From NCBI GenBank assembly GCA_043739185.1, contig JAYUEN010000265.1, positions 1 through 14,354 on the forward strand: a stretch of DNA of 14,354 nucleotides, read 5' to 3'. Positions 1,973 to 14,354 of this stretch are shown piece by piece. The stretch's first letter is position 1; each line of letters starts with the position of its first letter. Made by a program: the position numbers and the translations under genes. Origin of the DNA: Bdellovibrionales bacterium. Lineage in GTDB: Bacteria > Bdellovibrionota > Bdellovibrionia > Bdellovibrionales > JAMPXM01. The notes beneath the pieces were generated by a model. The model searched no databases and was not told the origin of the DNA. It saw only the letters and a list, made by a program, of their open reading frames with translations.

Positions 1973-2602
1973 TCAAACGAAATGAAAATGCCTCAAAACG
2001 AGGTAGGTGCAGCAAAAGAGGCCAATCGATAAAAGCGAACCAAATAAAAAAGATCTCAAATTTAACTTACTTGGTTTAATTTCAAGTGATTTTTCTTGCT
2101 TTTGATGGGTCTCGAGAGCTTGTTTCAAATTCATAATTTGCTCTTCTAATTTTAAAACTTGAGCTCTTAAATTCGAGCTCTCGCTAAGGAGGCTCACCTG
2201 CAGAGCTTGGGTAGTTTCTAATACCGCCCCACTTTGCTTGCCATTGGCATGCAACCAAAAATTCACATCAAAGCCGGGATACTTATCGTTGAGGGCAAGA
2301 TACCACTCGCAAGCCCTCAAGATATGAGGTGGCGTCTTGCCTTCGTCTGAAAGCCATCTACTCCAGCTGCTTGGATCAACCAATAGGAGTTGGCAAATCT
2401 TCCTTTGGCTTAGGTTTAATTTGGCCTGAATTCCTCTCAGACCGCCGAATTTTTTTAAAATTATTTGTGATTCGGCTTCATACTTCAGTCGTAACGAGGT
2501 TTTAGCACGAATATTTAAACTATTTTCTAAGTCTATTTTTAGGTCTGCACCCAAAGAGCCATTGCTAAATGCTTGATCCTGCTTGAGTACGTCTATCTGC
2601 AT
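1973..2602 (-). CDS. XRE/Cro-like HTH protein with coiled coil and C-terminal transmembrane anchor (209 aa)
   Basis: HTH-like LRGIQAKLNLSQRKICQLLLVDPSSWSRWL; heptad-like LRAQVLKLEEQIMNLKQAL; hydrophobic C-terminal FLFGSLLSIGLFCCTYLVL; AGGGGG SD 8 nt before ATG. Confidence 0.8.
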   Translation of the reverse strand: MQIDVLKQDQAFSNGSLGADLKIDLENSLNIRAKTSLRLKYEAESQIILKKFGGLRGIQAKLNLSQRKICQLLLVDPSSWSRWLSDEGKTPPHILRACEWYLALNDKYPGFDVNFWLHANGKQSGAVLETTQALQVSLLSESSNLRAQVLKLEEQIMNLKQALETHQKQEKSLEIKPSKLNLRSFLFGSLLSIGLFCCTYLVLRHFHFV

Positions 2603-2650
2603 GTTATCAGCCCCCTATTGGTAGCCTTATTCTAAATTCTAGCCTTTGGC

Positions 2651-2680
2651 TGGCAACTAAAATCGAAATTTTTGCTGCCA
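2651..2680. promoter_or_regulatory. Imperfect inverted repeat, possible operator upstream of the HTH gene
   Basis: TGGCAACTAAAATC-GA-AATTTTTGCTGCCA; arms match 11/14. Confidence 0.4.
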
Positions 2681-2717
2681 TTTTATTGTATTTCACCATA
2701 AAAGACGATGTATTATA

Positions 2718-2762
2718 CAATATATATGCATGCCTGGACATTCCATTAGGCATAATATATTG
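2718..2762. repeat. Bulged hairpin / inverted repeat
   Basis: CAATATAT(2718-2725) pairs with ATATATTG(2755-2762); ATGCCT(2730-2735) pairs with AGGCAT(2748-2753). Confidence 0.45.
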
Positions 2763-2828
2763 AAATTACTTATTATTATAAAAACAAGAAATCGTTCTGA
2801 ATTGGCGGTTAATTTTAGACGCGAGGTG

Positions 2829-2883
2829 ACTTACACTTATAGTTATAAGTTAGACTATTAAATATTTAATAATATTAACTTAT
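2829..2883. other. Overlapping palindromes upstream of the recombinase; candidate recombinase binding/crossover site
   Basis: ACTTACACTTA-TAGTTA-TAAGTTAGACT (2829-2856, 11-6-11; core ACTTAT-N4-ATAAGT) overlapping a 39-bp imperfect palindrome (2845-2883) with a perfect 16-bp centre TATTAAATATTTAATA (2856-2871). Confidence 0.4.
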
Positions 2884-2940
2884 TTTTAGTTTCTTAAAAT
2901 TTTGCTTTGCTTATCTCAATTTTTTTGATTTGATCAATTT

Positions 2941-3477
2941 ATGGCTTCAACACTGAGATACGCACTAAATAAGAACAAATATCTGCTCGATCCTGAGCTT
3001 GAATCCTTAGAAAATTTATTGAAAAAGTCATCCTCTGCAGAGCTTCGGGACTCAAGCCTACTTTCACTTGCCTTGGCCACTGGCGCTAGGGCTCAAGAAC
3101 TTTTGAATATTAGGCGTACTGACCTCAATATTTATGATCAGAGCATTTTTATAAGGGGTCTCAAATCTAGCAATGATCGTGAAATTCCGATTCGAGAAGA
3201 ATTATTCTCTCAGATTCTAAGCCTTGCAAAAGAAGTGGGTGCAAGTGAGCTCATCTTTCAAATTGGTTACCATCGCCTCAGGCAAATCTGGAAATGGTAC
3301 CGTCCGGTTGATAAGAAATTTCACTGTTTAAGACATACATTTGCCATCAGACTTTATCGAAAGACTAAAGATATTCGCCTAGTGCAAGTAGCTTTGGGGC
3401 ACCGGAATATTACAAATACCATGGTTTATGCTGATTATGTATATTCCCAGCAGGAGCTTAAAAAATTAATTCTTTGA
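2941..3477 (+). CDS. Minimal tyrosine recombinase (catalytic domain only, FimB/FimE-like size; 178 aa)
   Basis: Full catalytic set: R50 (TGARAQE), K75, H128-x-x-R131 (HCLRHTFA), H154 (LGH), Y163 (TMVY). Only ~35 residues precede box I, so there is no XerC/D-type core-binding domain. No clear SD. Confidence 0.93.
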   Translation: MASTLRYALNKNKYLLDPELESLENLLKKSSSAELRDSSLLSLALATGARAQELLNIRRTDLNIYDQSIFIRGLKSSNDREIPIREELFSQILSLAKEVGASELIFQIGYHRLRQIWKWYRPVDKKFHCLRHTFAIRLYRKTKDIRLVQVALGHRNITNTMVYADYVYSQQELKKLIL

Positions 3478-3795
3478 TTAGTTGGTGCGCTCAACAATAT
3501 CTGAAATATCTTTATAATTTGAAGCATTCTTAGTATCTGCTTCATCTTTGTCAAAATCGATTTCGACAGCTTCTTTTACCTTACCGCCCTTGAGGGATTT
3601 TGGTACTTCAATGGTTTGAAACTCACTGGCCGGGGCGCGACTGATCGATTGGATGATTTCTTTATTTTCTTTTAGGGAGTCATTGAGGGCGGCATTAAGA
3701 TCCGTTGCATCGGCCATTGCTTTTGAGGCACCCAAGCCCAAGCCAAGTATCAAACAAACAGATAAGTTAATGAATAATTGTAGCGAACTTCTCAT
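3478..3795 (-). CDS. Small secreted hypothetical protein, paralogue A (105 aa)
   Basis: Signal peptide ending AMA; AAGGGG SD; similar to the neighbouring gene (LNAALNDSLKE, VEIDFD, ASNYKD). Confidence 0.8.
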   Translation of the reverse strand: MRSSLQLFINLSVCLILGLGLGASKAMADATDLNAALNDSLKENKEIIQSISRAPASEFQTIEVPKSLKGGKVKEAVEIDFDKDEADTKNASNYKDISDIVERTN

Positions 3796-3828: not shown

Positions 3829-3852
3829 AATTGCAAGCTATGCCAGTCTCAT
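3829..3852 (-). promoter_or_regulatory. Conserved upstream motif copy A (TGGCAT-N3-TTGCAATT)
   Basis: ATGAGACTGGCATAGCTTGCAATT, 33 nt before ATG; 19/24 identical to 4338-4361. Confidence 0.65.
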
Positions 3853-3923
3853 GTCTCATATAAGGGCAGCTCATGAATCATCGCTGTGTTGATAATTTTC
3901 ACGTGAAAAGAAAATTTTAAGTA

Positions 3924-3940
3924 TGTCCAAACTTTAGACA
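3924..3940. promoter_or_regulatory. TGTC-N9-GACA palindrome, candidate activator site for paralogue A
   Basis: TGTCCAA-ACT-TTAGACA, starting 79 nt from the TGGCA element. Confidence 0.5.
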
Positions 3941-4001
3941 CTGCAGTTGCACCCCTGTTTACTAGGGGGATCGTCTAAATATTAGAGACTATTGAAGGCG
4001 C

Positions 4002-4307
4002 TTAGTAGCGGTCCTCGCGCAAATTTCCGGTTGCTTGGCTATCTTTATAGTTTGCTGCGTGCTCTCGATCAGGCTCATCTAGATTGATTTCAACCTTCGA
4101 GCGCGCTTTTACTTTGTGATTCGCGCTTTTGGCTTCTTCGGCTAGATTTTGATTCATTGATTGTGCTAGATCACGGCTTTCTTGAAGTGAGTTGTTTAAA
4201 GCAGAATCTAAGGCTGAGGTTGTGGCATTGGCATAGTCCATAATCAGTAGGGCTGCCGCCAATAAGACCGACAGAAAAAATATTCTAGGCAGAGTATTTC
4301 GAGACAT
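4002..4307 (-). CDS. Small secreted hypothetical protein, paralogue B (101 aa from the re-assigned start)
   Basis: Start moved from 4361 to 4307 (GGAGG at 4313-4317); signal peptide ending ANA; LDSALNNSLQE, VEINLD, AANYKD align with paralogue A. Confidence 0.8.
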   Translation of the reverse strand: MSRNTLPRIFFLSVLLAAALLIMDYANATTSALDSALNNSLQESRDLAQSMNQNLAEEAKSANHKVKARSKVEINLDEPDREHAANYKDSQATGNLREDRY

Positions 4308-4337
4308 AAAGTCCTCCGTTAAAGTTATAATATATAG

Positions 4338-4361
4338 AATTGCAAATGATGCCAAGCTCAT
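4338..4361 (-). promoter_or_regulatory. Conserved upstream motif copy B (TGGCAT-N3-TTGCAATT)
   Basis: ATGAGCTTGGCATCATTTGCAATT, 30 nt before ATG 4307. Confidence 0.65.
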
Positions 4362-4433
4362 CTCGAATACAGGGGTGCTTCAAGTCCGTTTAAAGCAGAG
4401 TTCTCCTGAGTGCGCCCAAGAGCATTCTGCGAA

Positions 4434-4450
4434 TGTCAAAAAACTCGACA
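4434..4450. promoter_or_regulatory. TGTC-N9-GACA palindrome, candidate activator site for paralogue B
   Basis: AATGTC-N9-GACATT; TGTC starts 80 nt from the TGGCA element. Confidence 0.5.
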
Positions 4451-4687
4451 TTTTGAGGTATCTTTCTTCTTTTGGTTGGTCCATTTTTAGCTCTAGATTT
4501 TAAATCAGATTAATTTGCAGCTGCAGCGGTTAGCCGCTTGGTTGTTTCGGTTTCTGAATTCAGAGTATTAGTTTGTAGAGGCACGCTCCCAATTGATCTG
4601 CCAGCAGATGAAGCTCAACCAATGAATCCTCTAAATCAATTAAAAAAATAGGATTGGACCCATAGCGCGATTAGGTTCAAGAGACCT

Positions 4688-5191
4688 TCAGTTCGGAGAT
4701 TTTCGTAAAAATTTAAAGAACTTTGTTGGATTGGAATCCAATTCAAGCTGGCAATTTTCTACTTTACAGTCTTTGAATTTTTGAATATCCGCCGCTACGC
4801 TTACAATATTGTTTTTTACAATGACGTCTTTTCCTACTTCAAAAAGAAAATCCTGCAAAAACCCACATTTTTCGCAAAAATAGGGTGCGTAAAAAGAAAG
4901 AATTCGGGCGCCCTCCGGGAGAAATCCTGAGACGGCATTGAACTGATGAATCAATCTCTTTGGACAATTAATCATAAAGATTTTGAATTTAGCAGACAAT
5001 GGCTCAATCCATTCAACCCAATCACGAATTCCGAGAGAGTTGATATAAGTTAGTTCTTGCAAATCAAAAATCAACTTTTTTGCTGGATAATTGTCCAAAT
5101 TTGGAAACTCAGTTTCTTCGCTGATCATTCCAGACATAACCAATTTAATCTCTGAATGATCTGCGCTTACCTGTACGGAAATTTGGGACAT
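4688..5191 (-). CDS. STAS-domain (anti-anti-sigma-like) protein with C-terminal Cys4 putative Zn ribbon
   Basis: LIFDLQELTYINSLGIRDW resembles the STAS D-L-x-x-hydrophobic-x-[YF]-I-[DN]-S-x-G motif with its phospho-acceptor Ser; CEKC and CKVENC pairs. Start 5191 preferred (AAGGA upstream); ORF extends to 5218. Confidence 0.8.
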   Translation of the reverse strand: MSQISVQVSADHSEIKLVMSGMISEETEFPNLDNYPAKKLIFDLQELTYINSLGIRDWVEWIEPLSAKFKIFMINCPKRLIHQFNAVSGFLPEGARILSFYAPYFCEKCGFLQDFLFEVGKDVIVKNNIVSVAADIQKFKDCKVENCQLELDSNPTKFFKFLRKSPN

Positions 5192-5320
5192 CTGAATTTT
5201 CCTTCTTTTTTTTTGCATTATTCAATATTCTAAATAGAGCGCAATTCAATTGATAGTCTAGTTTCAAAAGACAAAGTATAATAAAATTTTAGCTATTTTG
5301 AGGTCGGTGAATGAATGAGT

Positions 5321-5731
5321 CTAGCAGGCATTGCAGTTTTTAATTGATGCTGTAGGCGCTGAGGTTACACCATCGGTGGCATCTAAACTTTGTACGGGAA
5401 CAATGTTATTAGGCATAGTAAACTGCACGTCGACTGTACAAGAATTTGAGGGCAGTAGCTTAACCCCTGTGCAGTTATCATTAATCAAAGAATAAGTAGG
5501 ATCACCAGGACTTAGGCTGAGGCTAATTGGTTTTGATTTGAGAGCGCCCAAATTGGTCAGGACAAATGTTTGTGTAGTTGTCGCACCATAACCGTCAAAT
5601 TGAAATTGTATAGGAGTCCATGCCAATACTGTTCCATTAGGAATCTGTGGCAGCATCATGAATCCTGAGTTTCCACCAGCGAAACAAATTTTAAAATTAA
5701 ATATCATTAAAAATATTAAAATAGCTTTCAT
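5321..5731 (-). CDS. Small secreted Ig-like (choice-of-anchor D/ASH-like) protein, 136 aa, translationally coupled to the fibre gene
   Basis: ATG at 5731 overlaps the upstream stop (TGATG); signal peptide MKAILIFLMIFNFKICFA; TQTFVLTNLG...NDNCTGVKLLPSNSCTVDVQF pattern; ends CNAC. Confidence 0.78.
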   Translation of the reverse strand: MKAILIFLMIFNFKICFAGGNSGFMMLPQIPNGTVLAWTPIQFQFDGYGATTTQTFVLTNLGALKSKPISLSLSPGDPTYSLINDNCTGVKLLPSNSCTVDVQFTMPNNIVPVQSLDATDGVTSAPTASIKNCNAC

Positions 5732-8700
5732 CAAAACCCCGAGGCCCATGAAACATAAACCACAGTTCCAATTCGCATAAATGTATAAATGGTGTGAGTA
5801 TTAGCCGATCTTGCAGCATTAACTGGGCGATAGCGATAGCTGACGGTAGCGGCATCTTTGCCAGTGGTAGTAGTTGAGAAATCACACATACTAGTCCCGG
5901 TATCTGTGACCGCCAAATTATAAGTTCCGCCATCCATTAAATTAGCAAAGCTAACAAGTCCTGCGCAAGAATAATCAGTAGATATTGAGTTCCCGTTGTC
6001 CCAATCAATTGCTGAAGTGCCTCCGGAAATGGTTTGTGATCCCGTTCCCAATTGCCCGGTTACCTTTACTCTTCCTGCAACCTCAAGTTTGGAGCCTGGA
6101 TTTGAAGTACCAATTCCGATATTTCCACCGGAAGGGGCGATGTAGATGTTCCCTTTGGTACCGTTGGAGGTGGAATCTAAGGTTAGATTTCCGCTCGCTG
6201 AGTAAGTCCCGAATAGCGTGTTGTGAAAGGCGCGTCCGGACCCGTCGACGCCTCCCAAGTAGGATCCTGCGGTTGAGTAGAGCCCTATCAACTCTTGTCC
6301 TCCGCCCGTTGCAATCAGCAGCTGCGTTCGAGCTGTCGTAGGCCATATATTTACGTTGGCGGGAATCGAGCCGAAAGAGGTCTGCATGTTGGCTGCGTTT
6401 CCGAGTACGATTTTACCAGCGCCGCCAGTACCATTCCCTGATCCAGGCAATAGCTGGATGTTTCCGCCGTTCGTGTTGCCCGTTCCTCCAGATTGTGAAG
6501 TCATTTGAATATTTGAACCGGCGGTGGAAGCCGCGGCTGTTCCGCCTTGAACATCAAGCGTGCCTCCTGGTGTGTTCGTTCCAATACCGACGTTTCCGGT
6601 TGGATCTATTGTCATACGAGTGGGCGGTGCCCCGCCGACACTGCTCGTCTTGAAGTGAAGTCCGCCCATACCATAAAGAGACGTGGATGATATATAGTGG
6701 GTGATTGCCGCACCCGCGTTTCCGGCGCCAGGAGAATCGCCAAAGAAAATTCCATTCTCGCCACCAACGCTTGTTGGGACTCTGAGATACATATTGGCTC
6801 CGGACGTTCCAGCTCCGCTCGCGTCAGTCAAACTTGTCTGTGAACCGTTGATCGAGACAATCGGACCACCAGCATTATTTCCGTTTACAACGAACATCGC
6901 ATTGCTGGCGTTATCAAAGAGGGACCAAACCGGCCGCCCATAGCCATCGTCATTGAAAGAAAAAATTTTGCTTCCACTTGAATTCGTTGCATCTTGATAA
7001 ACTCCTGAAACTGCACTTATCTTGGTTGAAAGCAATGCCGACGGTGAGCTCGTACCAATACCGACGTTGCCGCTAGATAAAATCGTCGTTTTTGCCGAAT
7101 CGCTAGGGCCAATCATCAATGATGAGGCAATATTGTTAGTAATGCCTTTGCCAATTGCGACCGAATTTGCGGCCCCTGTGGTGTTATTGCTATTACCAAT
7201 TGCAACTGAGCCGCCTTCGACTGTATTAGAAATTCCAAACGCAATTCCTTGATCACCATTTGAGGGATTAATTGCATTTGAAATCCCCATGAGGACAGTG
7301 GCATCCCCTTGGCCTAAGTTATTGTTTCTTCCTACGCCAAGAGAATTACTATAGCCAACTGTATTGCCAATTCCGATATTTATGCCATTTGTCTCGCCGT
7401 AATTTGAGCCACCAAACCGAATGATTCCGGTTCCAATTCCAGTGATGCCATTGACTGTTAAAAGATTTGACGGAGAATTGGTTCCTATGCCGACGTTTCC
7501 CGAGTTCACTATTAGTCCATATCCTGTCGCGCTTGTAAAATATCCTGCTGTTCCCGAAGTGGAGGCTCCATAAACTCCATATCCCCCCACCGCATTTGTT
7601 GATTCGCCACGAACGCCATTGCTGCCCGACCCCGAATTAATTCCAGCCAAAGCATAGCTACCGCCAGCCTTACTATAAGTTGACTTAAGTGCATAGGTTC
7701 CTGAAGTTCCTACAACCTCAAGACTTGCTCCTGGGCTGGTTGTACCAATACCAACATTGCCGCCTGCAGAATTCAAAAGGACAAATCCCTTTGTGGCGTT
7801 TGAAGTACCATCAATTTTTACATTGCCACCAGCAGAATATGAGCCATAAATTTGCGGTGCAAGAACATAAGTTCCCGCCGAAATCGCAGTCGAAGCATTT
7901 ATCGACGCTCCAGAAAAAATGTCGCCAGTAGAACCAATTCCGCCCATAACAACTAATGCTCCGGTCGTACTACTAATTGAGGAAGTATTAGAGCTAATCG
8001 TTACCGACCCAGTATTTGAAATCGGCGAAAGAGTAATATTACCACTTGGGTTTGAAATGCTCGTAATATTAGTTAAATTAGGAGTAATGCTTGCGATCGT
8101 TCTGCGAGCAGCACTTGAGTCAGTAAAGTAAAGTGATGTTCCGTCATATTCGATCGCACCTGGTTCTGGAGTTGTTAGATTGCTACCAGCAGTTAATTTC
8201 AAAGGAGCGCTTCCCGCTGTAATATCTCCAGCTTTTATATGAAAAAAAGCTGATGGCGTAGTCCCAACCCCAACATTACCGACAGTAGCTCCTAAAATAA
8301 TATTTCCGTAATTGAAACCTGTGCCCGCATTGATCAAGACGTTTCCGCCGGAGCCGCCTACACTACGTCCATTACCTGCAATCAATGAAAGATCTCCGCC
8401 ACCAAAAGGTACGCCTGTTGTTGCCGAACCACTTTTTATAGTTAATGAATCACCATTTGTAGCAGCTGCTGCATTACTAACAGCTATTGTCCTCGCAGCC
8501 CCTTTAGACAAAGTAATATCACCGGTCACCTCTAATTGAGAGCTTGGATTCACATTTCCGACACCGACATTGCCACCCATGAAAGTCGCAGCATAACCAG
8601 CGCCCGATTGAGTAACTGCCAAAGCAGGTGAAGCGCTATTTGAATTATTTATGAGTGGTCCGGTCATGGTACCGCCACTGAGCTTGAGGTTTTGAGCTCC

Positions 8701-10680
8701 GCTAGTTGCCACTACTGAATCAACATATTGTTTGGTTGAGGCTCCAAGGGCAGCCGAAGGATCAGCTGATAATAATAAGAGGCCAGACATGGTGTCGCCA
8801 GACTTCATCACCTTAGTACTATCAGGTGGAATTGACGCCCAGGTTGGAGCTAGGCCTACTCCAGCAGACATCAAAACGTAATTGATTGGACCACCAGGAA
8901 GCGAAGTTAAATCTGCACTCGAGTTTGAGAAAATAATTTCGCCCTTGCCGAACGGCGCAAGTGCCGTGCCTGTTCCGCCTCGATTGAATGGAAGTAATCC
9001 AGTTGTAATTTGAGTGGCACCTAGGTTTGTGAGTTGCGAACCATCAACTGCTGGTAATTTTGCTGTGGCACTTAATTTTACGATCTGGTTATTACCAGTG
9101 CCTGAATTCAAAGTAAGAACTGGAGTCGTAGTGCTCGATGAAACATTGATGTCTGTGTTTGAAGAGCTTACATTTGTAACTGTACCGGTGGCTGGAGTGA
9201 AATACTCCCATGCGGGAGTTGCATTATTCCAACGCAAAGCTTGGCCATTTTGACCAGCGGCAGGCGCTGCAGGTAAAGTTTTGCCAATTAAATTTGAATC
9301 AACATACTGCTTGGGTGCAGCTCCCATGGCCGCAACTGGATTTCCAGACAATAGTAAAAGACCAGTCATCGTATCGCCGGCTTTTGAAACTCTTGAATTG
9401 TCTGAACCTGCCGTCCAGCTTAAAATTCCAGCCCCATCAGTGGTCAATACTTGATTAGGAGAGCCTGCAGAATTGGGTAAGGTTAGGGTATAACTGGCTC
9501 CGCCTAAAGAAATATCATTAACAGTTTGCATTCCAACAAAGTTCGGTCCGGCACCTGAGTGATCAAATAGAAAAATACGTTTGCTTGAAATGTCCGAAGT
9601 CGTTTGTAAATTTCCTGAAGTATTTATTGAAGTGGAGCCTCCGATAGTTCCTGAATTGATGGCAGATCCCAAGACCTTTCCGGCCGAAGATAAAGTTGGA
9701 ATATCTGTTTGCAAAAGTGCACTGCCGGCGGAGACTCTTCCGTAAGCGTCAACTGTAACTTTAGGATAAGTACCAGCCGTTCCCAGCGTCGCAAGGTCGA
9801 GAGTTCCTGTCGTAGTTAGGGTGGCACCTGCGGTACCGTTCACACTTAGGTTAGAAGAAGTTGTGATTGATGTTACCCCGGCGGCGGTTGTTCCCAAGAC
9901 GTGGTTGGCAGTGCCATCTGAAAATACAAGTTGTTTACCTGTAGAATCGTACCAAATATCCCCGGCAATAGGAGACGCTGGTGCGCTCGGAAAGCTTGGC
10001 AATACGGCTCCGCCAGTTCCTTTTTGGACATAATTTCCTGCCAAAATAGGGGCCAGGTTTGCAAAAGCTGCCGCCGTAAATAGACTTTCTAAATTTGCTT
10101 GTGTAAGAACTTCACCGACCGGAACCGTCGTATTTGTATGTAGAATACTCGAACGATCAAGCCCCTGTACACTTTGAGCAACGATCGCACTCGGAACAGA
10201 ATCTAAGACCATATCAGGAGTTAATACATCTGGAGTGCCAGAAGACGGAATGACAGTAATACGAAAGTAGCGCGTATCACCAGCCGAAGGAGAATAGGTC
10301 GCGCTCACACAGGTTTTGCCTGGGGCATTGCTGGCAGGGATCGCCGAAATATTTTGAACGATATTCCCCATAGTTTGACCCGCATCGAGACCAGATCGCT
10401 TGGGATTTCCTGGCAAGGAACCAACTTGAATACTAAAAAATCCATTAGTAGAAATCGTATTTATATTTTGAGTTTCTTCGTACAGGACACATGTTTGAGA
10501 TGGATCAAGAATTTGCACATTTAACTTGGCTCCGCCATCAATCAAAGGAGTGTTGGAGCCGGCATGAAAGAGTTGACCATCCAAAGTGAAGCTTTGAGAT
10601 GCATCGTTTGCAGCTCTAGTCATAAGACTAAAGAGCAAAATATTTAATAATAATAAGAGCTTCATCAACTGTACATACAT
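5731..10680 (-). CDS. Large secreted mosaic phage-tail-fibre-like adhesin (MAT-like trimeric fibre), 1649 aa
   Basis: Signal peptide; N-terminal domain with CVLYEETQ; two 33-aa KxGDTMxG...KQYVDS tail-fibre repeats (9295-9393, 8716-8814); seven GN[VI]G[VI]G[TN] beta-repeat motifs; SVAIG YadA-head-like stretch; C-terminal IDWDNGN domain. Confidence 0.9.
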   Translation of the reverse strand: MYVQLMKLLLLLNILLFSLMTRAANDASQSFTLDGQLFHAGSNTPLIDGGAKLNVQILDPSQTCVLYEETQNINTISTNGFFSIQVGSLPGNPKRSGLDAGQTMGNIVQNISAIPASNAPGKTCVSATYSPSAGDTRYFRITVIPSSGTPDVLTPDMVLDSVPSAIVAQSVQGLDRSSILHTNTTVPVGEVLTQANLESLFTAAAFANLAPILAGNYVQKGTGGAVLPSFPSAPASPIAGDIWYDSTGKQLVFSDGTANHVLGTTAAGVTSITTSSNLSVNGTAGATLTTTGTLDLATLGTAGTYPKVTVDAYGRVSAGSALLQTDIPTLSSAGKVLGSAINSGTIGGSTSINTSGNLQTTSDISSKRIFLFDHSGAGPNFVGMQTVNDISLGGASYTLTLPNSAGSPNQVLTTDGAGILSWTAGSDNSRVSKAGDTMTGLLLLSGNPVAAMGAAPKQYVDSNLIGKTLPAAPAAGQNGQALRWNNATPAWEYFTPATGTVTNVSSSNTDINVSSSTTTPVLTLNSGTGNNQIVKLSATAKLPAVDGSQLTNLGATQITTGLLPFNRGGTGTALAPFGKGEIIFSNSSADLTSLPGGPINYVLMSAGVGLAPTWASIPPDSTKVMKSGDTMSGLLLLSADPSAALGASTKQYVDSVVATSGAQNLKLSGGTMTGPLINNSNSASPALAVTQSGAGYAATFMGGNVGVGNVNPSSQLEVTGDITLSKGAARTIAVSNAAAATNGDSLTIKSGSATTGVPFGGGDLSLIAGNGRSVGGSGGNVLINAGTGFNYGNIILGATVGNVGVGTTPSAFFHIKAGDITAGSAPLKLTAGSNLTTPEPGAIEYDGTSLYFTDSSAARRTIASITPNLTNITSISNPSGNITLSPISNTGSVTISSNTSSISSTTGALVVMGGIGSTGDIFSGASINASTAISAGTYVLAPQIYGSYSAGGNVKIDGTSNATKGFVLLNSAGGNVGIGTTSPGASLEVVGTSGTYALKSTYSKAGGSYALAGINSGSGSNGVRGESTNAVGGYGVYGASTSGTAGYFTSATGYGLIVNSGNVGIGTNSPSNLLTVNGITGIGTGIIRFGGSNYGETNGINIGIGNTVGYSNSLGVGRNNNLGQGDATVLMGISNAINPSNGDQGIAFGISNTVEGGSVAIGNSNNTTGAANSVAIGKGITNNIASSLMIGPSDSAKTTILSSGNVGIGTSSPSALLSTKISAVSGVYQDATNSSGSKIFSFNDDGYGRPVWSLFDNASNAMFVVNGNNAGGPIVSINGSQTSLTDASGAGTSGANMYLRVPTSVGGENGIFFGDSPGAGNAGAAITHYISSTSLYGMGGLHFKTSSVGGAPPTRMTIDPTGNVGIGTNTPGGTLDVQGGTAAASTAGSNIQMTSQSGGTGNTNGGNIQLLPGSGNGTGGAGKIVLGNAANMQTSFGSIPANVNIWPTTARTQLLIATGGGQELIGLYSTAGSYLGGVDGSGRAFHNTLFGTYSASGNLTLDSTSNGTKGNIYIAPSGGNIGIGTSNPGSKLEVAGRVKVTGQLGTGSQTISGGTSAIDWDNGNSISTDYSCAGLVSFANLMDGGTYNLAVTDTGTSMCDFSTTTTGKDAATVSYRYRPVNAARSANTHTIYTFMRIGTVVYVSWASGF

Positions 10681-10691
10681 GCTAGTTATAC

Positions 10692-10718
10692 TTATCGTCA
10701 GGTCTAGGTCTAGGCTAA
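10692..10718 (-). promoter_or_regulatory. Putative sigma28/FliA-type promoter for the fibre gene
   Basis: TTAG-N15-GACGATAA versus consensus TAAA-N15-GCCGATAA; the -10 ends 11 nt before ATG. Confidence 0.5.
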
Positions 10719-10845
10719 AGACGATAGATTGAACTCAACGATTTCAAAAAATTAATTTCAATTCGAAATGTTTCAAACTGATAAATTGAAACCGACATGA
10801 AGGAATCTGCTCTATTTTGAGATTAAATTTTTTTTGAATCCATTT

Positions 10846-12660
10846 TCAATTGAATTCAAATGCACAAAAGGTGACGTCGTCAATTAACTTTATTTTGTCA
10901 GAATAGGCTATAGATTCGTCTTTAACTATATTTACAAAATTTTCTAAATCTGTTCGCTCGTTCGTAGCGTGTACCAATGCCTTTATTAAACCACGTTCAT
11001 CCCACATTTTCTTTTCTTGATTTTCTAAATCCGTCAAGCCATCGGTGAATGCAAAAACAATATCTCCCGGAAATATGTCACAAACGGTTTCAGAATATCG
11101 ACAATTGAGAACGTGGCCCAGTCTCAGACCTTGTTCTTCAGCTAAAAGTGGAACTAAGTTACTTTTGGTAATTGGTTCACTCGATTTTCGAATGAGGTAG
11201 GGTGCCGAATGACTAGCGTTTGCATATGTTAACTTATTTAGTTCGGTATCAATGCTGGCGACAAAGAAGGTCAATTGAATTTGACCTTTTGACGACATAT
11301 ATATGGCGCGATTGAGCAGGGTCAAAAAACTAGCGGGGGTAATATTTGGCGTCATTTCAATTAAAGAAACCGCTGACCTTGCTGCGCTAGTTATCAAAGC
11401 CGCCGATGCGCCATGTCCTGTGGCATCACCAATACAGACAAAAACTTTATTTGAAGATTTAAAGTAATACCACCAATCGCCCCCACACTCACTAGCGGAC
11501 CTGTAGTAGCCACTAATTTTCACGCGATCAATCTGTGCATTATTGTCTGGAAAATACGTATCTTGCACAAGCTTTGCAGTTTCAAGTTCCTTTTCCATTC
11601 GCGCTTTTTCGACGTTGTCTTTCATTAGTGCCGAAACTTTAGTAACCATGGTATTAAAGTTTCGGGATAAGTTGCCAACTTCATCCGAACTTTCAATATT
11701 TAGATTGACTTCAAAGTTGCCGGCGGCAAGATCCGTAGTTGCTGAATCTAAAACACTTAACTGACTTGTAATTTTCTTTGAAAAGAAAATAGCAAGCATT
11801 GAAGTAAGAGAAATAAGTGCAATGAAAAATAAGGATGCTTTGAGCAGAAGCGTTTCAATTGCATTTAATGCTACATCCCGCGATATAGTTGAAATAGAAA
11901 TTAAATTGGACAATCCGACCTTTGAAAATGACACCAGACTCGGTACAGAGTTTATATTTGTCGTCTCTTCTGCCCCATCCGGAATTGAATCATTACTAAT
12001 TTTATTAAAGAACTTCCAGTCCTTTAATGAAATAACGGGACTATCAATTTTTGATTGCAACAAAACCTGTCCATTCGATCTTACAATAAAATTATCATAG
12101 TTCGAGGTCCTCTTAAGGAGATTTAACAATCCCTCCTCGTGATCTACTGAAGTTATAAAATAACTATCTGGATCACCTTCCATCAATACTTTTTGTGAAT
12201 AGATAAGAATATTTTGATCCGATTGAACCACTTTAAAAGAAAGAGTATCTTCAATGGCCTGGCGCTCAACTAGAATTTTATTTTGCTCAAGAGCTCGACT
12301 TTTTTCCTCGCTAAAATCAACTTTCTTCATTGTGGCTATGATTTCAAAAGTATTGCCGTCAAATTTACTTAAAATCACTTCATCTAGATTGTCGTCCCTG
12401 TCAAAAATGTTTTGTGCACTGGATTCAAAAATGCGCTTTGTAAAATCAAAGCTAGAGACAAATAGCGACATTTGGGCAGATCGCATATGGAGCTCTGTTT
12501 TAATTTGATTTGCAATACCTTTCGAATTAGCCAAGCTTGAATCGAAAATATAAGCGATTTTGTCTTCTTTGAATAGACTTACAGCCAGGGTGAGGACCGC
12601 TGCCAGTGAAAGGCCCGTAAGACTTAACATGACTATTAGGAGCTTGTAACGTAATGACAT
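10846..12660 (-). CDS. Membrane sensor Ser/Thr phosphatase: 2 TM, extracytoplasmic Cache-like region, HAMP, PP2C/SpoIIE (RsbU-like), 604 aa
   Basis: HAMP ...DEVGNLSRNFNTM; ELETAKLVQ linker; PP2C motifs GGDWW, IGDATGHG, FTDGLTD and DDVT all intact. Confidence 0.93.
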   Translation of the reverse strand: MSLRYKLLIVMLSLTGLSLAAVLTLAVSLFKEDKIAYIFDSSLANSKGIANQIKTELHMRSAQMSLFVSSFDFTKRIFESSAQNIFDRDDNLDEVILSKFDGNTFEIIATMKKVDFSEEKSRALEQNKILVERQAIEDTLSFKVVQSDQNILIYSQKVLMEGDPDSYFITSVDHEEGLLNLLKRTSNYDNFIVRSNGQVLLQSKIDSPVISLKDWKFFNKISNDSIPDGAEETTNINSVPSLVSFSKVGLSNLISISTISRDVALNAIETLLLKASLFFIALISLTSMLAIFFSKKITSQLSVLDSATTDLAAGNFEVNLNIESSDEVGNLSRNFNTMVTKVSALMKDNVEKARMEKELETAKLVQDTYFPDNNAQIDRVKISGYYRSASECGGDWWYYFKSSNKVFVCIGDATGHGASAALITSAARSAVSLIEMTPNITPASFLTLLNRAIYMSSKGQIQLTFFVASIDTELNKLTYANASHSAPYLIRKSSEPITKSNLVPLLAEEQGLRLGHVLNCRYSETVCDIFPGDIVFAFTDGLTDLENQEKKMWDERGLIKALVHATNERTDLENFVNIVKDESIAYSDKIKLIDDVTFCAFEFN

Positions 12661-12749
12661 TTGGCTCGAATTTATTAAAGTTGAAATCGATTCCTGATTA
12701 AAATTATCATGTCTTTAGTTTGGTTACAATAAGTGCCTGGATGCCTCGA

Positions 12750-12806
12750 CCATCGGCCCGATCATTTTAAATTTTTACCTCTAGAATTCTCATTATGAGC
12801 CGAAAA
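12750..12806. promoter_or_regulatory. Back-to-back putative sigma28/FliA-type promoters
   Basis: - strand TAAA-N16-GCCGATGG (12777-12750) toward the phosphatase; + strand TCTAG-N14-GCCGAAAA (12780-12806) toward the FecR-like gene. Confidence 0.45.
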
Positions 12807-12825
12807 GAAGATAGGTGAACTATCT

Positions 12826-14354
12826 ATGTTAGAGCTCAAAAACAAGCCAAAACGAAATCGCAGTGACATATTAATATTTCTGCTATTTACCTTTGCATTT
12901 GGTCTTTCGTTGTATTGCATTTATTTTGACGAAAGTGTTTTTGGATTGATTCAAGAAACAAAAATAAAAAATGTTCAGCCCATTGTTGGGGCAATGGACA
13001 TTTTGGTTCGTGATATCAGAAAAAAAGAGGCCACATCAGTGTTGTGGGAAAAGGCCCGGCACGGTGACCAGATTCGAATTGGCGATCGAGTTTTTACTGG
13101 CAAGGGCTCGAGCTTACGAGTCATTCTTGAACAAGGTGGCAATTTAGATCTTGGCGAAAACACAATGATTACTTTTTCATCGCTAAAAGGCAAGTCCGTG
13201 GCGAATTTGAGTTTTGGAAAAATGAAAGTAAACGTCGATGGCAGCGCTAAAATTGCAATCAACGGAAAAATTCAGACCATAAAGGGTAAACAGTCTCAAA
13301 TAGAAATTTCTGTTGATGCAAAACAAAAGCCGAAATTTCGCATTATTCATGGTGATGTTCAAGTCACCGCCGAACCAATAGAGATAGCAAAGACTCAATT
13401 GGTCGATGAAAAATCTATAATATTGCCGCCAAAAGCAGAAGAAATCGTAGTGAAGCCAAAACTCATTCCGATCTCCTCTCAACAAGAATATTTTTACACT
13501 GAACAATTAGAATATATTTATGAGAGCCGAGATCAAAAATTATTCTTAAGAGAAGAAAAACCAAATCAAGTCGCAGTTTCAATTCCGCTTCATTGGGGGA
13601 TAAAGGGCATCGTTCATCAAATGAGTGGTCAATTATCGAACAACCAAAATTTTGAAGCTCCGATGCAATCATTTGAGGCTGAAGCGGACTCTTACGAGCT
13701 CAAGCGCGCTTACCTGGGCGAAAATTATTGGCGCCTGATGGGCGCAGGGCTCGAATGGACTTTGCCATTAGAATTTAAAGTAACTTCAAGGCCCTTAAGT
13801 GTTTCGCCGCCAAAGCTCAAATTGACATCCTCAAAAGTATATTTGCTCTCAAATAGTGTCCCGATCCGCGCGCAAATTGAAACCAACGAAGAGCTAAAAA
13901 GTTTTATAGTTGAGATTTCAAGTTCGGCGGCTTTTAACAACTTTGAAACGCAAGTTCGCTTAAAACAAGAACCAAGTTTTAATTTTAATGCAAGTAAGGC
14001 TCAAGACTTCTTCATTCGATTAAGAGGAGTCAATGCGAAAAATGAAGTCACTGCATATTCGCCAATTCAAAAATTAGAGATTTTAGAGGCCCCAATGCCA
14101 ACTCCTCCTAAGCTTGCTTCTAAGTCTTACAAACTCTATGTCGATCAAGTACTAGATATCGAATGGGACAGTTCAAAAAATGCTAAAGAATACGAGATCA
14201 GTGTCGTCAATAAAACTGGACAAATTGTTGAAAGTCGGAGCACTAGCGGTAATAAGAATCAATTTAATATTGCCACTCCTGGCGAATACCAAATCGCAAT
14301 AAATGCAATTGATCGCTTCGGGCGCAAAAGTGCGAGTAGTTTTGCAAAGCTAAT
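12826..14354 (+). CDS. FecR-domain membrane-anchored protein with FN3/Ig-like repeats, 3' end outside window (>=509 codons)
   Basis: Not in ORF track. AGGTGA SD 7 nt before ATG 12826; MLELKNKPKRNRSD-ILIFLLFTFAFGLSLYCIYF (TM); FecR-like IRIGDRVFTGKGS...LDLGENT; FN3-like IEWDSSKNAKEYEISV...GEYQIAINAIDRFG; no stop to the window end. Confidence 0.88.
   Translation, partial: MLELKNKPKRNRSDILIFLLFTFAFGLSLYCIYFDESVFGLIQETKIKNVQPIVGAMDILVRDIRKKEATSVLWEKARHGDQIRIGDRVFTGKGSSLRVILEQGGNLDLGENTMITFSSLKGKSVANLSFGKMKVNVDGSAKIAINGKIQTIKGKQSQIEISVDAKQKPKFRIIHGDVQVTAEPIEIAKTQLVDEKSIILPPKAEEIVVKPKLIPISSQQEYFYTEQLEYIYESRDQKLFLREEKPNQVAVSIPLHWGIKGIVHQMSGQLSNNQNFEAPMQSFEAEADSYELKRAYLGENYWRLMGAGLEWTLPLEFKVTSRPLSVSPPKLKLTSSKVYLLSNSVPIRAQIETNEELKSFIVEISSSAAFNNFETQVRLKQEPSFNFNASKAQDFFIRLRGVNAKNEVTAYSPIQKLEILEAPMPTPPKLASKSYKLYVDQVLDIEWDSSKNAKEYEISVVNKTGQIVESRSTSGNKNQFNIATPGEYQIAINAIDRFGRKSASSFAKL

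Follow-up and report, generated by a model that had tools for sequence, protein, structure and literature searches.

A minimal tyrosine recombinase, a divergent HTH partner and a palindromic crossover site form an order-wide module near dif in Bdellovibrionales

Near dif, Bdellovibrionales carry an order-wide, uncharacterised tyrosine-recombinase module that comprises a dedicated crossover site and phased accessory DNA. We describe it in a window of 14,354 nucleotides, the whole of contig C265 of a 4.85-Mb, 540-contig assembly, and in relatives taken from other Bdellovibrionales records. A reading of the window from its sequence only had proposed a two-part recombination system placed at the terminus. 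The two-part module and its position held when the related genomes were compared, and the roles proposed for the system did not all do so.

The recombinase gene (2941 to 3477, forward strand) encodes a catalytic-domain-only tyrosine recombinase of 178 aa. An in-frame stop is found four codons upstream of the start, so that no N-terminal domain was missed. PF00589 was the sole Pfam match (residues 19 to 165; E = 3.5e−23), the AlphaFold model is a lone catalytic domain (pLDDT 89.6), and Foldseek aligned it with the catalytic domains of XerH, XerA, P2 and HP1, XerH being the best structural match. The alignment of the window protein with 63 of the 120 homologs listed revealed that R50, K75, H128, R131, H154 and Y163 are invariant in all 64 sequences, and so are R6, Y7, N10, K11 and K13 of a basic N-terminal arm. 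The initial description of a minimal recombinase with an intact R-K-H-R-H-Y hexad and no core-binding domain is thus confirmed by the ORF, the Pfam match, the structural model and the alignment. We infer that the basic arm is a better candidate than the HTH partner for an extra DNA contact. The protein matched 1,514 others of 97 to 312 aa, with identities of 65 to 90% among the 120 matches listed; a search for fused longer relatives (313 to 2000 aa) at E = 1e−15 found none, which is weak evidence. The enzyme has the catalytic fold with the R-K-H-R-H/W-Y residues of the tyrosine recombinase superfamily and falls outside the XerC, XerD, XerS, XerA and invertase families. It scored 63 to 68 bits with the XerC and XerD models (cut-offs, 330 to 335), proteins of about 300 aa with a core-binding domain, 51 bits with XerS (cut-off, 267) and 40 to 45 bits with the FimB/FimE invertases (cut-offs, 221 to 222; a weak match, E = 1e−11). 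It scored better with the XerA model (E = 1e−24), yet far under the XerA cut-off.

The divergent gene (1973 to 2602, reverse strand) encodes an XRE/Cro-like HTH protein of 209 aa with a coiled coil and a predicted C-terminal membrane anchor, as assigned by Pfam, structure prediction, Foldseek and hydropathy. The predicted structure consists of a helix and the HTH (residues 36 to 104), a 60-residue helix (113 to 173) and a hydrophobic helix (179 to 208), and hydropathy peaks at residue 185 (KD19 maximum of 2.13). The HTH domain itself is weakly assigned (HTH_31, E = 0.02; Foldseek top match, the Cro/XRE-like Aca1, E = 0.53). With this reservation about the HTH, the predicted helices agree with the earlier view of a divergent HTH and coiled-coil protein ending in a transmembrane segment. 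The C-terminal hydrophobic helix, at most 12 residues from the C terminus, was present in 72 of the 86 distinct HTH homologs, while 14 were under the transmembrane threshold, 8 of them narrowly and 6 clearly without a helix. Homologs without the C-terminal hydrophobic helix occurred in loci L017, L050 and L056, which cluster on the tree, and also in L026, L059 and L071; a soluble variant of the HTH protein may exist in the former cluster, or its members may carry frameshifts. When the Atlas was searched with a module protein, the only cluster above 0.9 was the module's own Bdellovibrionota cluster, the phage HTH clusters below 0.9 being leads only.

Between the two genes lies an inverted-repeat core site of 28 bp (2829 to 2856; arms and spacer of 11, 6 and 11 bp), identified with a profile derived from the regions upstream of the recombinase genes. 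The outer arms are degenerate in the window (7/11 pairs). The profile gave one match with a score above 12 in the 4.85-Mb source genome, and this match was the window site, so that the candidate site suggested beside the genes turned out to be a palindrome that is single-copy genome-wide. The site was kept in 100 of 110 loci. We found no second half-site in these 110 loci, whereas a prophage integrase with attL and attR would lie at the edge of an integrated element with a duplicated core. With a loose half-site pattern applied to 251 genomes of the order, the reversed control matched about as often as the extra matches occurred. The spacer (2840 to 2845) was TAGTTA in 67 of 92 distinct sites and the flipped TAACTA in 11, and its asymmetric 2-bp centre changed between GT and AC at least three times on the tree. 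Arm positions 7 to 10 from the centre were complementary in 66 to 77 of the 92 sites, compared with 31 to 40 expected from independent columns. At these four covarying positions, the top strand showed 18 G-T pairs and the bottom strand 17 equivalents, which rules out an RNA hairpin: since the arms covary without strand bias in wobble pairs, the palindrome points to DNA symmetry, not an RNA stem. The core site goes with the HTH gene and the operators. It adjoined this gene in all five of the split loci fetched, where inserted genes separated the core site from the recombinase gene and never from the HTH gene. An ACTCGCG-like motif, possibly a promoter element, recurs in many loci between the IHF-like box to the right of the core and the recombinase start codon.

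Palindromic operator repeats, which are predicted binding sites of the HTH protein, occupy the interval from the core to the start of the HTH gene. The window has two (2707 to 2721 and 2685 to 2699, respectively 129 and 151 bp from the core centre), and related loci have two or three, 21 to 22 bp apart. There were 201 matches in 88 loci, compared with 0.03 per locus in shuffled sequences. Almost all the operators (209 of 213 matches in 96 loci) were found at about 108, 119, 129, 141, 151, 162, 173 or 184 bp from the core centre, a ladder of about 10.8 bp whose half-turn positions were empty from 111 to 171 bp (resultant of 0.89 at 10.7 bp). Part of this periodicity is the 21- to 22-bp repeat itself; the informative part of the phasing is that there are two registers, one helical turn apart, which require at least 10 changes on a low-support tree of 85 rows. 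One IHF-like box (2859 to 2871, forward strand) stands directly to the right of the core, with one mismatch to the consensus that we assumed for IHF, and its offset is fixed across relatives. With a relaxed pattern, it was found at this offset in 70 of 96 loci; of 92 loci, 16 had the exact assumed consensus and 52 had at most one mismatch. The other IHF-like box (2753 to 2765, forward strand) lies 90 bp to the left of the core centre and at 78 to 79, 88 to 90 or 100 bp in relatives. The spacing of operators and IHF-like boxes to the core by whole helical turns fits a looped synapse, as expected; it would also fit a purely transcriptional loop. A matS-like operator array throughout the terminus is ruled out, since there were two phased pairs genome-wide, one of which is the window locus.

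A provirus occupied the palindrome in one of about 100 loci, L128 (G053:C1:222000-239000), where it lies at about 3840 to 13220 on the reverse strand. The element spans 9,383 bp between its junctions, with a full site beside the HTH gene and, 71 bp ahead of the recombinase gene, a right half-site. The identity between the junctions starts at the first base of TAGTTA, and the two remain near-identical over about 30 bp, a stretch that takes in the right arm and the IHF-like box. Because the junctions become identical exactly at this base, the spacer is a real crossover point. The virus imports a right arm with an IHF-like box that closely copies the host's, and the full site is restored on the operator side. 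The element encodes its own minimal recombinase (215 aa; 42% identity to the window enzyme), and therefore its insertion is no proof that the host enzyme cuts the site. Its other genes include an ATPase-like protein, a transglycosylase, a GNAT protein and a possible capsid protein of 374 aa without a confident family. No tail or terminase-sized genes were evident in the element, which is possibly a tailless provirus. Like the IMEX elements CTXphi, TLCphi and GGI, this provirus has one host-like arm with the spacer and one divergent arm, and it leaves a full site behind, as do TLCphi and GGI at dif (PMC5357621). Unlike them, it targets the palindrome instead of dif and encodes its own related recombinase.

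Among the 92 distinct loci whose upstream sequence reaches 1 kb or more, 82 had a divergent HTH gene within 1 kb of the recombinase gene and 87 had an HTH gene anywhere in the locus. In four of the other five loci, it could be traced 3 to 10 kb away (the remaining locus is L033); the distance was at most 6.4 kb except in L057, where the two genes are 10 kb apart with the provirus between them. The recombinase was single-copy in 31 of the 41 genomes of the relatives sample, which includes the source genome. A sample of the phylum yielded it in 23 of 30 genomes of the order and in none of 120 outside it. No HTH gene was found in 14 of 15 recombinase-negative genomes of the order, the exception being an 89%-complete assembly, or in any of 13 genomes of other orders. 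Since kin are not independent, these linkage and distribution counts are descriptive and are not tests. The conserved linkage and the joint loss support the proposal of a two-part module. Neither gene was found in the five genomes of genus g27 (G034, G073, G178, G190 and G198) or in the complete genomes G027 and G032, and the module is therefore dispensable for some lineages. Of these seven genomes, all of them complete or near-complete, G073, G178, G027 and G032 retained a dif match.

We used the distance to dif as a proxy for the terminus, since GC skew says little over a 14-kb window and cannot be accumulated over 540 contigs. In all 29 genomes with both on one contig (12 complete chromosomes and 17 genomes of seven families), the recombinase gene was 6.7 to 60 kb from dif, as the suggestion of a terminus position had implied; in 10 more genomes, including the source genome, dif is on another contig. 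In the 12 complete chromosomes, the distance to the canonical dif was 10.8 to 22.8 kb; a 13th gave no dif match. The gene was directed away from dif in 28 of the 29 genomes, but relative to the polarity of dif itself it occurred on both sides. In the source genome, synteny with G003 suggests the contig order C265-C257-C511-C51, the last of which carries dif, and would place the module about 12 kb or more from it. The source genome encodes an XerC-like protein (C75, 303-aa frame) and an XerD-like protein (C38, 291-aa frame), so named by likeness, and a canonical dif. XerCD and dif are likewise predicted in strain HD100 (PMC2731167, PMC11318664). The module is therefore additional to XerCD and not a replacement for it, and the presence of full-length xerC and xerD together with dif contradicts the earlier idea, in its strongest form, of an unconventional way of resolving dimers that would replace XerCD. 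Small contigs of the source genome (G000:C161:1356-1374) and of a congener (G003:C9:1589-1607) carry another dif-like sequence, with a spacer unlike that of dif, which may mark an IMEX element or a plasmid dif.

Relatives of the recombinase are found in viruses. We collected 22 viral minimal recombinases of 160 to 215 aa, a set that excludes some near-duplicates, at 37 to 53% identity. The hexad was RKHRHY in 20 of them and RKHKHY in 2. None of the 30 viral loci scanned carried an HTH homolog or a full core site, and the half-site pattern was absent, at up to two mismatches, from all five viral records tested. Three exact half-site matches in viral contigs, including the integrase-less L141, were discarded as within rough chance expectation. 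The enzyme family can thus exist without an HTH partner, which argues against a partner that replaces the core-binding domain. This, together with operators that lie 106 to 184 bp from the core, makes it doubtful that the HTH protein supplies specificity for the core, as first suggested. The host recombinases clustered on the tree (2 label changes, compared with 21.5 after shuffling), and the viral ones were more diverse. The host gene was probably captured from a phage, a direction read from a sequence tree whose root is unreliable because of long branches. About 20 viral records from IMG/VR (L133 to L138 and L155 to L174) had intact tyrosine recombinases of 160 to 204 aa without the site or the HTH gene; several carry tailed-phage gene sets, and the recombinase is often found amid early or packaging genes.

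The surroundings of the module in the window revealed no phage, IS or conjugation families by Pfam in the other ORFs scanned (all but the one cut by the left end of the window), consistent with the first impression that no such genes lie nearby. Two small paralogous proteins, probably secreted (3478 to 3795 and 4002 to 4361; repeat family D7), are encoded convergently to the recombinase gene, and a similar gene follows the recombinase gene in the distant relatives L093 and L057. Further along are a 176-aa protein without a Pfam match (4688 to 5218), which we take to be STAS-like, and a Gly/Ser/Thr-rich repeat protein of 1,649 aa (5731 to 10680; no Pfam match at E = 0.1) that presumably resembles the fibre-like adhesins of Bdellovibrio. 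A HAMP-SpoIIE phosphatase was identified by Pfam at 10846 to 12660. Elsewhere, the source genome G000 carries eight mobile-type integrases of 375 to 418 aa (C54, C223, C127, C211, C457, C191, C416 and C74).

Published data on B. bacteriovorus cover the likely HD100 orthologs, Bd2025 and Bd2026, whose orthology was judged from size, annotation and gene order instead of sequence. Bd2025 has 534 bp and is annotated as "bacteriophage integrase or recombinase" (PMC3627812 supplement); the predicted dif lies 12.4 kb away from it, and the maximum of the skew about 6 kb away. In the same supplement, both genes are transcribed, with RPKM of 54/80 for Bd2025 and 42/156 for Bd2026, compared with 1.4/25 for xerC and 54/901 for xerD; the sheet name suggests that the two columns are attack and growth phase. 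Neither protein was found in the readable part of the supplementary proteome tables of PMC12546842, which list XerC and XerD. Transposon sequencing of host-independent 109J showed no fitness cost for the position-matched integrase EP01_RS06045 (W of 1.2 to 1.8) or its neighbour RS06050 (W of 1.8 to 2.5). These data are insensitive here, because ftsK and most other integrase or recombinase rows in the tables show no cost either (PMC6561027). The terminus is polar in B. bacteriovorus, and a 2023 review anticipates that dimers are a greater problem there than in other bacteria and, in the part covered, names only XerCD, dif and FtsK (PMC11318664). A word search of the main text of a 2025 Hi-C preprint found no mention of recombinases. 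Our literature searches, paywalled papers aside, gave no paper on the module, and those with Bd2025, Bd2026 and Bd2027 returned only unrelated papers. How B. bacteriovorus untangles and positions the many chromosomes of a filament is an open question on which the module bears, with defined genes (likely Bd2025 and Bd2026) and a defined site with accessory repeats in a tractable organism. An enzyme of 178 aa with a short symmetric site would rank among the smallest site-specific recombinase systems, and its family, for which the literature searched describes no role, extends to 22 viral records or more.

We tentatively favour the explanation that the module is an auxiliary resolvase for sister chromosomes, gated by an accessory complex, tethered to the membrane and working alongside XerCD/dif. 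The host recombinase would act on the two sister copies of the single-copy 28-bp site, and recombination there would help to separate chromosome dimers or interlinked sisters. The HTH protein would bind the operator repeats and assemble a complex with IHF, which would bend the DNA at the IHF-like boxes, so acting as a directionality factor like that of cer/psi or TnpT and as a regulator of the divergent promoters. Its anchor would hold the terminus at the membrane, and the recombinase gene would have come from a phage. The basis in the data is the intact enzyme, the linkage and co-loss of the two genes, the single site per genome, the use of the spacer by a provirus, the phased repeats and the proximity of dif. 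Against an auxiliary resolvase, nothing yet explains why a second system should be needed beside XerC, XerD and dif, no cost was seen by transposon sequencing, the proteins were not found in the proteome tables, and the viral relatives lack an HTH partner. A bolder version, which we consider unlikely, is a second chromosome-unlinking machine, independent of FtsK, in which a membrane-tethered XRE protein licenses a domesticated phage-type enzyme while also anchoring the terminus and setting the directionality of recombination. If true, this machine would serve filaments that hold multiple chromosomes and give rise to many progeny, and it would be the first chromosomal resolvase system to combine a catalytic-domain-only enzyme with a membrane-bound accessory factor.

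It is also unlikely that the module is a domesticated phage integrase-repressor pair policing its attachment site, with the HTH protein as an ordinary autoregulatory repressor acting on three operators and the induced enzyme excising proviruses that enter the palindrome. A divergent integrase and XRE gene are a typical prophage layout, the host genes stand apart from the 22 viral recombinases and are less diverse, the operators are just upstream of the HTH start, one provirus uses the site, and transposon sequencing shows no fitness cost. Such policing would explain neither the fixed closeness and orientation to dif nor a virus's choice of a site from which it is evicted; only one site was occupied among about 100 loci, the half-site pattern was absent from the five viral records, and the tree root is unreliable. 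Slightly less probable is a terminus tether, in which the tail-anchored HTH protein holds ter at the membrane through the operators, in a role likened to that of MatP or ZapT, and the enzyme nicks and closes or decatenates DNA locally, at its specific site, without completing net recombination. In favour of a tether are the hydrophobic helix that follows a long coiled coil in 72 of the 86 homologs, the closeness to dif and the polar terminus of B. bacteriovorus. The operators do not form ter-wide arrays, however, some lineages have no anchor, and the provirus junctions reflect true strand exchange at the spacer by some enzyme.

The near-perfect palindrome, with covarying arms and a centre that flipped between GT and AC, could also recall a hairpin-telomere resolvase that linearises the chromosome at ter, perhaps in one life stage; we regard this as very unlikely. 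A single contig crossed the site without a fold-back joint in seven of eight sequencing runs, although contigs drop rare forms, so that rare or stage-specific hairpins escape this check, and those from RNA runs carry no readout of expression level or strand. The eighth run, a metagenome, broke 33 to 45 bp beyond the centre. The complete chromosomes have an intact site, and the telomere resolvases known to us are far larger than the window enzyme. That the module replaces XerCD/dif, and that its HTH protein does the work of the missing core-binding domain, is highly improbable: the gene-linked site near the terminus recalls XerS/difSL, but xerC, xerD and dif are present in the source genome and relatives, and the viral enzymes lack core-binding domain and HTH partner alike. 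We give least credence to a phase switch driven by an invertase of the FimB/FimE kind, for which the similar size, the weak model match and the IHF-like boxes speak, since one site per genome leaves no invertible segment, the XerA model matched better, and no inversion joints were seen in the runs examined.

The auxiliary resolvase that we favour can be compared with several known systems. FimB and FimE are, like the window enzyme, small tyrosine recombinases without a core-binding domain that use IHF. They invert the DNA between two repeats, whereas the module has one site per chromosome, a single one in 4.85 Mb. XerS/difSL and XerH/difH each have, as the module does, a single recombinase gene that neighbours its inverted-repeat site in the vicinity of the terminus (PMC5357621, PMC2731167). 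Nevertheless, XerS (356 aa) and XerH (about 350 to 360 aa) have a core-binding domain and replace XerCD, while the 178-aa enzyme coexists with XerCD/dif and, unlike them, has a partner gene and a phased accessory region. The TnpS/TnpT/rst system of Tn4651-type transposons shares the divergent recombinase and helper genes, the site between them and the core and accessory inverted repeats (PMC7157771). It is carried by a Tn3-family transposon with a transposase, whereas the module is a single-copy chromosomal pair near dif with no transposase in the ORFs scanned; its helper is XRE-like with a predicted membrane anchor, and no Pfam match suggests homology to TnpT. The plasmid sites cer and psi (XerCD with PepA and ArgR/ArcA) have a core of 28 to 30 bp with about 180 bp of one-sided accessory DNA, which restricts them to resolution (PMC5357621), a geometry that matches that of the window. 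In contrast to these sites of XerCD, the window site is chromosomal and has other arms, its own enzyme and a candidate accessory factor. Although it is a member of none of these systems, the module may, by analogy, work like a hybrid of XerS/difSL, with a gene-linked site at the terminus, and of TnpS/T or cer/psi, with resolution gated by a helper.
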